The notes under the pieces: generated by a model
The model's database searches: none
Seen by the model: the letters and a program-made list of their open reading frames with translations, nothing else
Told to the model about the DNA's origin: nothing
Position numbers and translations under genes: made by a program
In this document: positions 45,871-47,590 of the stretch, one piece after another
Numbering within the stretch: the stretch's first letter is position 1
Layout of the letters: each line of letters opens with the position of its first letter
Assembly (NCBI GenBank): GCA_040981125.1
Contig: JANRMQ010000009.1
Coordinates: forward strand, 73,624 to 137,623
Direction: 5' to 3'
Source of the DNA: Nitrospira sp.
GTDB lineage: Bacteria > Nitrospirota > Nitrospiria > Nitrospirales > Nitrospiraceae
Length of the DNA stretch: 64,000 bases

Positions 45871-46071
45871 TCATTGTCCGCCGCCCATGTAGAAAAGAAA
45901 TTCCACCCGGTCGCCATCCGTCACCGAGGTGGAACTTAGTTGGTCGCGCTCGATCATCGTATCGTTCAGCTCCACCCCGACCATGCGAGGGTCGATGTTT
46001 TTCGCTTTCAATACGTCCAAAATCACCGTCGCCTGAATATCCTCAGACTTTCCATTAATGATGACGATCAT
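45871..46071 (-). CDS. ThiS/MoaD-like sulfur-carrier protein ending GGGQ
   Basis: 66-aa beta-grasp-like sequence MIVIINGK..V.LN..I..R...S...V.DGDRVEF..YMGGGQ. One residue follows the Gly-Gly. Confidence 0.65.
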   Translation of the reverse strand: MIVIINGKSEDIQATVILDVLKAKNIDPRMVGVELNDTMIERDQLSSTSVTDGDRVEFLFYMGGGQ

Positions 46072-46104
46072 ATGTTGTGCGCTCCAACTTATTCCAATGC
46101 AGCA

Positions 46105-46524
46105 TCAGATAAACAATGTCGTCTCGGCGCCGGCGGTCAACGCCAGAATGGCCGGCAATCCCAGGACGTGGTCTACCTGTTTGGTAACGGCTTCCGAATC
46201 GACCCCCATGTATTCAAGGCCCGCGCTGCAGGCGACCAATCGAAATTCGCCGACCATCCGGGCCTCGCTGAACATCTCGGAAATGCGGGGCACACGCTTT
46301 TCCTGGAGTAGGCGACGAACCTCATCTGCCCCTCCTTCATACTCCGGTGGAAAATCCATCTCGTCGATCCGTCCGTCAGCCAGTTTCTTGATCGTCCAGA
46401 ACAGTAAAACGACGGTGACATCTTTCCCCATCGCAGCCGCCGTGAGGCCGAGTGTCGCCACTTGATGGAGGGTATCATAGGTGGCACTGTGGGCAAAAAT
46501 TACAAATCGTGGTTTCTGGGTCAA
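46105..46524 (-). CDS. DsrE/DsrF-like sulfur-relay family protein
   Basis: 139 aa: FVIFAHSATYD..LGLTAAAMGKDVTVVLLFW..LVACSAGLEYMG (conserved Cys). Confidence 0.55.
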   Translation of the reverse strand: MTQKPRFVIFAHSATYDTLHQVATLGLTAAAMGKDVTVVLLFWTIKKLADGRIDEMDFPPEYEGGADEVRRLLQEKRVPRISEMFSEARMVGEFRLVACSAGLEYMGVDSEAVTKQVDHVLGLPAILALTAGAETTLFI

Positions 46525-46528
46525 GATC

Positions 46529-47590
46529 TCACCTCATAGAATTGAGCAGCCCATAGCGGGCCAGCCGGTCTCGGATGATATTGCGGCTGGTTCCCAGCAA
46601 GCGGGCCGTTCGGACTTGGTTTTGGTCGCAGTAAGCATACGCGGACCGGATCACCGTTTCATCGATGAATCGGTAGATATTCGGCCTGTCGCTGTTAAAG
46701 AGCCGGACGAGCGCATCCTGCAACGGTTCGCCGGCCGGCGACACCGACGCGGCTGATGTCGCGTCGTGGCGCACCGACGGGAGATGCAGATCCTCGGCCC
46801 GGACTATCGTGCCGGGGCACACGAGCAGCGCATGGTGAATGGCATTTTCCAGCTCCCGAATGTTCCCCGGCCAGGGATACTGGAGGACTCGTTCGATCAC
46901 ATTCGAAGAGAGACTTGCCGTTGAGTAGCCCAACCGTTCGCCGTAGACCGAGAGAAAATGGTAGGCGAGCGGCAGAATGTCGCCGGTCCGTTCGCGCAAT
47001 GGCGGCAGCAGAATAGGCGCCACGTTGAGCCGATAGTAGAGATCTTCACGGAACCTGCCGGCGGCCACCGCCTCCTTCAAATCCACATTCGTGGCTGCGA
47101 TCAGTCTCACATCAATATCGACCGATTGTCGCGAGCCGACGCGCACCACTTGCCGTTCTTGCACGACGCGCAGCAGCTTGACCTGCAGCGGCAGTGGAAG
47201 GTCGCCGATCTCATCGAGGAACAAGGTCCCGCCATGGGCGGTCTCGAACCATCCCGCCCTCGCCGTCAGGGCTCCGGTAAAGGCGCCTCGCTCGTGACCG
47301 AAGAGTTCGCTTTCGATCAGCGATTCACTGATGGCCGCGCAGTTGACCGCGACAAACGGGCCGAGATGCCGATCGCTCAGTTCGTGAATATGGCGCGCGA
47401 TCAGTTCCTTTCCGGTTCCGGTTTCGCCGATCACCAGCGCGGTGGCATCGCTCGGCGCGATCCGATGCACCAGCGCCAGCAAGGCTTTTGATTTGTCGTC
47501 CTCGAAGACAAGGCAGCTTGCCCGTACCGAGAGGGCCAGAGCCTTCGGATCGGAAGCCGTCAGCGCTTTGAAAGTCGGGGCAATGTTCAT
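46529..47590 (-). CDS. Sigma-54-dependent transcriptional activator lacking a receiver domain
   Basis: [29 protein letters not shown]-terminal Fis-type HTH ([16 protein letters not shown]). Only about 40 aa precede the AAA+ core. Confidence 0.85.

Follow-up and report, generated by a model that had tools for sequence, protein, structure and literature searches.

Three genes that lie between cysA and a Family 2A encapsulin in a Nitrospira sp. genome, encoding a sigma-54 activator, a DsrE-like protein and a ThiS-type sulfur carrier, are in our reading (to which we assign a rough probability of 0.6) parts of a Nitrospiraceae-specific sulfur-acquisition supercluster, in which ThiS would be a carrier of the CysO type, the DsrE-like protein a likely sulfur carrier and the activator the cluster's own regulator. 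The genes were studied within a stretch of 64,000 nucleotides (nt) of contig JANRMQ010000009.1 (assembly GCA_040981125.1), hereafter the window. Judged by gene content and order, the locus unites, in a lineage-specific way, a desulfurase encapsulin of Family 2A with thiocarboxylate-dependent synthesis of cysteine, and the window genome has a stripped-down form of it. Both parent systems are already known; what appears to be new here is that a ThiS module and a cluster-specific paralogue of the DsrE2B-like group stand where a rhodanese is usual.

Gene order in the window and in related Nitrospira clusters

A first-pass annotation of the window had placed three same-strand genes between cysA and the encapsulin, and all three open reading frames (ORFs) were found there, on the minus strand (Table 1). 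The genes from sbp through the acetyltransferase are contiguous and share a single strand, and none of the gaps between them, the 152-nt spacer upstream of the encapsulin gene included, holds a terminator-like site. The same gene order was present on an NCBI contig of a Nitrospiraceae metagenome-assembled genome (MAG) that encodes a 99%-identical DsrE-like protein, and the precomputed Pfam list of a near-identical locus (L007; the labels L001 to L180 denote the contig stretches with homologues that were compared with the window) agrees with the sulfate-transporter assignments.

Within these stretches a fuller order was encountered: cysPTWA – DsrE-like – ThiS – PALP (310 residues) – ThiF (276 residues) – encapsulin – desulfurase – acetyltransferase – sigma-54 activator. 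The set running from the DsrE-like gene to the acetyltransferase, accompanied by the activator and preceded by cysPTWA, was recovered in L001-L005, L011, L021, L026, L063, L100 and L175-L180; in a second arrangement (L011, L021, L063) the activator follows cysA and precedes the DsrE-like gene, an order shared with the window, and both PALP and ThiF are kept. PALP is a cysteine synthase of the CysK/M family (TIGR01139, 439 bits), the start of which overlaps the ThiS stop by 4 nt in the relatives. ThiF matches the MoeB, MoeZ and ThiF models over the adenylation domain only (it aligns just to residues 15-274 of the 392-position MoeZ model) and thus has no rhodanese domain. The earlier picture of the carrier as a stand-alone partner of the compartment gives way at this point, since in most orthologous clusters ThiS is translationally coupled to CysK/M, with ThiF coming next.

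PALP and ThiF are both missing from the window, L007, L008 and L025 (the last having the same shortened layout, with intact ThiS and DsrE-like genes), and ThiF alone is missing from L029 and L101. The cluster-specific copies of the DsrE-like gene are termed S-type below, and the copies outside the sulfur cluster housekeeping; as both main branches of the S-type clade hold loci with the synthase and the E1 enzyme (ThiF), their absence from the window is best read as loss. The synteny indicates that ThiS belongs to a CysO-like cysteine-synthesis module which was shortened in the window lineage. In agreement with the first-pass annotation as regards E1 and JAMM, the 64 kb hold no ThiF/MoeB-type E1, CysK/M or JAMM gene: tblastn with the Nitrospira orthologues gave at best E = 0.008 over 33 residues, and no CysK/M or ThiF remnant was detected in the 152-nt spacer by blastn or tblastn. 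Among the called genes of the S-type loci there were no Pfam matches to rhodanese (PF00581) or TusA, and none of the encapsulin-type (S-type) clusters compared carries a JAMM gene.

Some variants differ between cysA and ThiS. In L099 (8249-8647) this interval is occupied by a scar in which the N-terminal part of the activator, reaching just beyond Walker A to the start of the GAFTGA region, runs on into the final ~25 codons of the DsrE-like gene; one deletion took out most of both genes there, while ThiS, CysK/M and the encapsulin remain. An extra ORF of 216 residues (without a Pfam match in L175) is found between cysA and the DsrE-like gene in some variants (L175:6691-7341), and an equivalent gap of ~0.9-1.1 kb is present in L029 and L100.

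A ThiS carrier with a variable residue after the glycines

The 66-residue protein ending in GGGQ that the first-pass annotation had called ThiS-like scored above the cut-offs of both TIGR01683 thiS (53.3 bits; cut-off 37.45) and PF02597 (33.2 bits; cut-off 22.5). Its C-terminus reads YMGGGQ and the thiS model stops at residue 65, which leaves Q66 as an extra residue, so that the protein runs one position beyond the terminal Gly-Gly of ThiS/MoaD carriers. A comparison of the C-termini of 120 listed Nitrospira homologues showed that YMGGG is followed by R in 67 and by Q in 33, the remaining residues being W, H, T, L, C or G (few each); the exceptions in length were three proteins with two extra residues and two with none. 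The post-glycine residue is, by this comparison, a trait of the whole family and not a peculiarity of the window. Considering that a variable cap after constant glycines is the pattern expected of a residue that is removed, we infer that the carrier is trimmed at its C-terminus.

Relative to a sister assembly, the ThiS gene of the window shows six synonymous and two non-synonymous differences (ratio of non-synonymous to synonymous rates, dN/dS, 0.09), and the DsrE-like gene 13 synonymous and one non-synonymous (dN/dS 0.02); the counts are small, and both genes are under purifying selection in this lineage.

Carriers of the same type (three glycines plus one residue, GGG+X) are also encoded away from encapsulins. 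In Candidatus Nitrospira bockiana and several MAGs (L010:10001-15259, L091:8001-13096, L093:8001-13229) we found an encapsulin-free operon with the order ThiS – CysK/M – ThiF – ThrC-like – 90-residue MoaD/SAMP-like carrier – NIL – second ThiF – Prok-JAB. Its second carrier ends in GG in one genome and in GGS in another, and is fused to NIL in L091, varied ends that imply the need for a processing protease in the family. Its gene content gives the operon the look of two thiocarboxylate routes side by side, one to cysteine and the other probably to homocysteine. A tree of ThiS, with 66 residues at its disposal, did not resolve the cluster copies from those of the separate operon.

These operons bear on two earlier suggestions. 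Processing of the capped carrier by a JAMM protease is plausible, given that a Prok-JAB gene shares an operon with the same GGG+X ThiS in other Nitrospira, although the window itself has no such gene. Likewise, the proposed search for E1 and JAMM enzymes, fruitless within the window, succeeded in the relatives, which have the E1 in the cluster and the JAMM gene in the separate operon.

A dedicated DsrE-like paralogue

The DsrE/DsrF-like assignment of the first-pass annotation, with its conserved cysteine in LVACSAG, stands: the protein matches PF13686 DrsE_2 at 33.6 bits (cut-off 25), and A98 and C99 are invariant across 21 homologues of 26-78% identity. Look-ups were done with 99%- and 78%-identical homologues, the exact sequence of the window not being on record. 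The AlphaFold2 model (pLDDT 93.6) had its best Foldseek match in 2qs7 (TM 0.86, 29% identity), with weaker matches to 3pnx, DsrE3A (3mc3) and DsrEFH, and phmmer aligned the protein over its full length to 2qs7 (E = 1.6e-13). The latter structure is SSO1126 of S. solfataricus, classed as DsrE2B (PMC4175335; PMC11094781). Fold and cysteine together lead us to propose that the protein acts as a persulfide carrier.

The family is small (180 matching clusters at E <= 0.001 in a library of 1.84 billion representatives). A species-level scan, with one genome per GTDB species, returned 398 relatives, and the contexts of the best 80 of these were inspected; relatives of ~40% identity exist outside the genus, and the survey of contexts covers Nitrospira. 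Every one of the best 80 is from Nitrospira: seven of the genes lie inside the sulfur cluster and 73 have no cluster gene nearby. In a neighbour-joining tree the S-type copies form a single clade within the Nitrospira radiation, and two MAGs hold an S-type copy plus a housekeeping one. The S-type gene always adjoins ThiS, and an encapsulin was seen in every locus with a long enough contig. Phylogeny and context thus identify the cluster gene as a dedicated paralogue, its counterpart being a protein that is widespread in Nitrospira.

The housekeeping copy occurs in most of the Nitrospira species representatives retrieved (most of L012-L090; e.g., L082:9600-11254), usually flanked by a small, secreted-looking protein of 131 residues and a 150-residue protein without a family match, with polA and a formiminotransferase gene nearby; a Pfam scan of the flanking proteins gave no match. 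TusA, Dsr and sHdr families were absent, by Pfam, both from the called neighbours of the S-type loci and from the ORFs around the housekeeping copy in L082.

The encapsulin unit and the reach of the link

The shell protein scores 461 bits against NF041162 (cut-off 380) and 348 bits against PF19307. The desulfurase scores 565 bits against TIGR01979 sufS (cut-off 475) and 782 bits against NF041166, slightly below the cut-off of 800, and the acetyltransferase, which also has a Hexapep match, 163 bits against NF041874 (cut-off 150). The layout typical of Family 2A is thus present, the shell gene preceding that of a cysteine desulfurase extended at its N-terminus.

A metagenome scan with the shell protein retrieved 80 loci (shells 72-88% identical). 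Profile searches of all their ORFs placed ThiS in five; a DsrE-like gene turned up in two, along with a single fragment, and every one of these loci is of the Nitrospira type as judged by the identity of the neighbours. Among the other 75, 47 non-Nitrospira loci extend more than 1.5 kb beyond the shell gene on its upstream side, and none of these carries a ThiS or DsrE-like gene. Hence the co-occurrence that had been proposed for survey holds in one part and fails in another: the three genes are conserved with the encapsulin in a Nitrospira clade, and ThiS and the DsrE-like gene are missing from all 47 loci outside the genus, a distribution by which the link to encapsulins is not general and is confined to Nitrospira. 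The one Verrucomicrobiota locus that was annotated (L128, assigned to Verrucomicrobiota/Limisphaerales by the source names of the closest desulfurase homologues) has a rhodanese 3' of the desulfurase, as in published operons.

Rhodanese is found in about 49% of the described Family 2A operons, and the families named in the published table of co-occurrences are Aminotran_5, Hexapep, Rhodanese, BPD_transp_1, ABC_tran, LysR, HTH_3 and PALP (PMC8049743 supplement 2). Neither this table nor the searchable Family 2A literature mentions ThiS, ThiF, DsrE or thiocarboxylates, and a sigma-54 activator is likewise missing from the descriptions searched, so that, within that literature and the one neighbourhood table, the earlier impression of a combination not previously described proved right.

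Between the window and the non-Nitrospira loci (L104-L174) the shell is 72-82% identical, the desulfurase mostly 55-65% and the acetyltransferase ~41%. Such conservation of the shell suggests either very strong constraint or horizontal transfer of its gene between phyla.

A leader hairpin shared across phyla

A 27-nt element, GAACTGACCGGACCACYGGARGTTCTC, has two exact-pattern matches in the window against 0 expected, one upstream of sbp and the other upstream of the porin-like gene with which the supercluster opens (Table 1); its core is CUGACCGG-N4-CYGGARG. The copy ahead of the porin gene recurs in L001, L025, L026, L029 and L097. Of 70 metagenome loci, 43 have the motif no more than 420 nt ahead of the encapsulin gene (at ~200 nt in L119, L121, L128, L142, L153, L166-L172 and others); in these loci it also precedes sbp, cysM, PAP2-like and porin genes, always facing the downstream ORF. 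A covariance model found no copy in the window beyond these two, and none in the separate ThiS operon or the housekeeping DsrE loci.

The motif folds into a hairpin of 3+4 base pairs whose internal loop, GA/A, is conserved. At one position of the stem 29 sequences have a G-U pair, 22 a G-C and seven an A-U, and none is unpaired; at another, G-C occurs 27 times, A-U 12 times and G-U 11 times. The score for covariation (0.291 vs 0.223 ± 0.014 for shuffled alignments, with none of 500 shuffles reaching it) falls when the pairing is slid, which suggests a conserved stem, not conclusively so as the sequences are mutually related. A search of the window and of four loci of the Verrucomicrobiota type against Rfam 15 gave no family that matches the motif, and the Thermus SbtR operator (TGACTGGCCAGTCA), raised by a literature search with the sequence string, was dismissed as unrelated. 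The element could act as a regulatory RNA that responds to sulfur, or else as an operator, and its distribution speaks for a common signal behind the Nitrospira supercluster and the encapsulin operons of the Verrucomicrobiota type.

The sigma-54 activator

As first described, the activator has GAFTGA, Walker A (GETGTGKE) and Walker B motifs and no receiver; only ~27 residues lie ahead of the AAA+ core, where the first-pass annotation had put about 40. The Sigma54_activat domain (PF00158, 238 bits) spans residues 28-193 and is followed by the AAA lid; the N-terminal 48 residues have no domain match. At the C-terminus a Fis-type helix-turn-helix is weakly matched (HTH_8, 17 bits, under the cut-off of 22), alignments to NtrC-type NCBIfam models extend to residue 343-348, and the segment is conserved among 12 orthologues. 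Four cysteines (C26, C84, C258 and C321) are invariant. Each S-type cluster has an orthologue, placed in the interval from cysA to the DsrE-like gene or else 3' of the acetyltransferase gene.

Scans with the GG-N10-GC consensus yielded no conserved intergenic -24/-12 site in the window cluster or in 11 related loci. Two candidates were set aside: a GG-N10-GC before the encapsulin gene (L001, L026), which is too near the ribosome-binding site and better read as a hairpin, and a match within the 3' end of the desulfurase gene, which is accounted for by conserved codons. Immediately 5' of the AGAAAGGA ribosome-binding site of the encapsulin gene there is an inverted repeat, GCGGGCAT-N2-3-ATGCCCGC (L001:12485-12520, L026:12465-12500, also L029, L100 and L101; degenerate in the window at ~45750-45800, minus strand), whose spacing fits GG-N10-GC by chance and that may act as an RNA-processing or translation-control hairpin. 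The best sigma-54-like site near the cluster, CGGCATGCATGCTGCA (40526-40541, plus strand), lies ~95 nt upstream of a TOBE gene (40635-40850, plus strand), which is followed by a DUF2173 gene (40913-41275, plus strand). Divergent from these two is the gene of a 207-residue protein (39727-40350, minus strand) that consists of a sigma-54 interaction domain only, with no lid or DNA-binding part detected.

Table 1. Features of the supercluster in the window, and copies of the leader hairpin in related loci.
Feature	Position	Strand	Basis or remark
Leader hairpin copy 1	56001-56027	-	22 nt upstream of 537-residue porin-like gene; covariance model 40.4 bits, E = 3.5e-9
Putative outer-membrane porin, 537 residues, first large supercluster gene	54365-55978	-	Conserved in L001, L007
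Leader hairpin copy 2	51584-51610	-	24 nt upstream of sbp start; covariance model 34.6 bits, E = 1.5e-7
Sulfate ABC transporter set sbp/cysP, cysT, cysW, cysA	47600-51559	-	Contiguous with the three genes, gaps <=9 nt
sbp/cysP	50528-51559	-	ORF layout
cysT	49610-50521	-	ORF layout
cysW	48715-49719	-	ORF layout
cysA	47600-48754	-	Pfam: ABC_tran, CysA_C_terminal, TOBE_3
Sigma-54 activator, 353 residues	46529-47590	-	Sigma54_activat + AAA lid
DsrE-like protein, 139 residues	46105-46524	-	PF13686 match
ThiS carrier, 66 residues	45871-46071	-	TIGR01683, PF02597
152-nt spacer; CysK/M + ThiF slot in related clusters	45719-45870	-	Gene-order comparison
Family 2A encapsulin shell (SrpI-like)	44741-45718	-	NF041162, PF19307
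SufS-type cysteine desulfurase, long N-terminal extension (encapsulin cargo type)	42898-44760	-	TIGR01979, NF041166
Serine O-acetyltransferase (CysE/EpsC type)	41925-42950	-	NF041874, Hexapep
Leader motif copies elsewhere	L001:1560-1595; L025:2339-2374, 5642-5677; L026:606-641; L029:2130-2165; L097:1202-1237

The 537-residue porin-like protein has no Pfam match of its own; the gene at the equivalent position in L175 matches Porin_O_P.

Weighing the explanations

We reason that the supercluster (porin, binding proteins, sbp-cysTWA, the activator in one of its two positions, DsrE-like, ThiS, CysK/M and ThiF where kept, encapsulin, desulfurase, acetyltransferase, the activator in its other position) would form a sulfur-limitation unit, combining uptake (porin, binding proteins, CysTWA) with cysteine synthesis (acetyltransferase, ThiS module) and a desulfurase encapsulin. 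ThiS would serve as a CysO-type carrier in cysteine synthesis via a protein thiocarboxylate. In the window lineage, from which synthase and E1 were lost, its adenylation, trimming and use would fall to enzymes with genes outside the locus, a ThiS/CysK/M/ThiF/JAMM operon of the kind carried by other Nitrospira being suited to the task; that ThiS is kept under selection here, and kept in several other E1-less lineages, points to such service in trans. As the E1 has no sulfurtransferase domain and the cluster no rhodanese, the DsrE-like paralogue becomes the obvious candidate donor of sulfur to ThiS-AMP. It most likely carries sulfane sulfur on Cys99, and would fill the role of the rhodanese (the MoeZ domain, or the encapsulin-associated rhodanese elsewhere) by connecting ThiS-AMP with the desulfurase/encapsulin or with incoming sulfur. 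A candidate for the origin of the sulfur that reaches ThiS is the desulfurase/encapsulin, and the activator, without a sensor domain, would be the cluster's own regulator. The sequences show the identities of the genes, their conserved order, the paralogy, the loss of the module in this lineage and the purifying selection, while the sulfur chemistry is inferred. Co-regulation of the cluster is well supported; a direct hand-off of sulfur to or from the compartment is plausible.

Several observations weigh against this explanation. The orthologue of 2qs7 in M. cuprina, the DsrE2B protein Mcup_0682, was unreactive with six sulfur compounds in vitro (PMC4175335), and the housekeeping paralogue sits amid unrelated genes of unknown function. 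The separate operon has ThiS, CysK/M and ThiF without a DsrE-like gene, and L096 and L099 have ThiS, CysK/M and the encapsulin without one, so that the DsrE-like gene is essential for neither the module nor the cluster. PALP scores as CysK and not specifically as a CysO-dependent CysM, and the 64-kb window has no gene for E1, cysteine synthase or JAMM protease. Finally, the passage from cysteine to sulfur via the desulfurase, and from there to cysteine again, would be a futile cycle unless the encapsulin is a store.

The chief rival, quite possible if not our preference, is that the genes adjoin only because all of them respond to sulfur limitation: the ThiS module would turn sulfate-derived sulfide into cysteine, the encapsulin unit would be a separate sulfur store, and no sulfur would pass between the two. 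The constant position of sbp-cysTWA directly upstream, the leader motif shared as in a common regulon, and the independent gain and loss of modules among lineages are all in keeping with this; the ThiS, CysK/M and ThiF module stands alone elsewhere in Nitrospira without an encapsulin, and ABC transporter and PALP genes are already frequent in published Family 2A neighbourhoods. Mere co-regulation leaves unexplained, however, why the S-type DsrE-like paralogue is found only in encapsulin-bearing clusters (where the contig is long enough), why these have no rhodanese when about half of the Family 2A operons do, and which protein donates sulfur to an E1 that has no sulfurtransferase domain of its own and thus needs some donor.

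Elemental-sulfur storage has been shown for desulfurase encapsulins (PMC10836720). An extension of the favoured explanation, which we hold to be doubtful, would make the DsrE-like protein and the capped ThiS a retrieval route for encapsulin sulfur. Sulfane sulfur from the encapsulated desulfurase, or elemental sulfur stored in the shell, would pass to Cys99, then to ThiS-AMP and, via CysK/M and O-acetylserine supplied by the co-encoded acetyltransferase, into cysteine, closing a store-and-retrieve cycle that a shared leader RNA responsive to sulfur and the cluster's activator would switch on.

Improbable in our judgement is that the DsrE-like protein does the sensing for an activator which has no sensor of its own, in the manner of PspA and PspF; sulfane sulfur, by modifying Cys99, would then either free the activator or block it. 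In favour of this, the activator has no regulatory domain, the two genes are 4 nt apart in the window-type arrangement, the single deletion in L099 took most of both and left a fused scar, and DsrE2B had no sulfur-carrier activity in vitro (PMC4175335). Nevertheless, in the other main arrangement the activator is ~6 kb away, 3' of the acetyltransferase gene, the constant neighbour of the DsrE-like gene is ThiS, no activator adjoins the housekeeping paralogue, and the scans of the window and the 11 related loci found no sigma-54 promoter. Very improbable is that ThiS and the DsrE-like gene are functionless leftovers of the loss of synthase and E1, as the partner genes missing from locus and window and the evolutionary lability of the cluster might suggest, since both ORFs are intact with low dN/dS values, both genes are also intact in the equally shortened L025, and ThiS persists in three further lineages that lost ThiF only.

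The cluster is of interest on several counts. To our knowledge, it is not established how sulfur leaves the encapsulin shell and which proteins accept it, and the DsrE-like paralogue and the thiocarboxylate carrier are concrete candidates, open to in vitro tests, for the acceptors of encapsulin sulfur. Furthermore, protein thiocarboxylates are probably the route by which Nitrospira, key nitrite oxidisers of soil and wastewater, make their cysteine, and likely homocysteine as well, a capacity that as far as we know has been little noted for them. The leader motif, if confirmed, would be a cross-phylum regulatory element for sulfur-limitation genes, encapsulin operons included.

Comparison with known systems

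The closest counterpart of the module is the thiocarboxylate-dependent cysteine synthesis of Mycobacterium tuberculosis (CysO-CysM-MoeZ-Mec; PMC3227635). The orthologous Nitrospira loci resemble it in having a ThiS-fold carrier directly upstream of, and overlapping, a CysK/M gene, with a ThiF/MoeB-type E1 adjoining and a JAMM protease encoded with the same type of carrier in another Nitrospira operon. They differ in that the window holds the carrier alone, the E1 has no MoeZ rhodanese domain, the carrier bears a one-residue cap after the glycines and the synthase scores as CysK, while the acetyltransferase of the cluster suggests O-acetylserine, rather than O-phosphoserine, as the substrate.

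Capped carriers processed by JAMM proteases are exemplified by HcyS-Ala/HcyD of Wolinella succinogenes and QbsE/QbsD of Pseudomonas fluorescens. Like these, the Nitrospira carrier has extra residue(s) past Gly-Gly that would have to be removed before adenylation, here variable, and a Prok-JAB gene is linked to this type of ThiS in other Nitrospira; unlike them, neither the window nor any encapsulin-type cluster encodes the protease, and processing would have to take place in trans.

With the DsrE2B proteins of Sulfolobales (SSO1126, Mcup_0682) the DsrE-like protein shares the full-length fold and a conserved cysteine in an equivalent A-C-S motif, although no tusA, dsrE3A or hdr genes are nearby and the host is a nitrite oxidiser and not a sulfur oxidiser. 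PspF and HrpR/HrpS are sigma-54 activators without a regulatory domain, and the activator is built like them, with ~27 residues before an AAA+ core that bears GAFTGA and with a putative, weakly matched helix-turn-helix at the C-terminus; it differs in that no -24/-12 promoter was found in the cluster and no PspA- or HrpV-type partner was identified.

As for the encapsulin unit itself, the shell, the N-terminally extended desulfurase, the serine acetyltransferase and the sulfate ABC transporter are shared with the Family 2A operons of Synechococcus elongatus (SrpI) and Acinetobacter baumannii and are published partners of the family (PMC8049743 supplement 2; PMC10836720). In place of the rhodanese, the Nitrospira cluster carries the DsrE-like gene, ThiS (with synthase and E1 in the relatives) and the sigma-54 activator.

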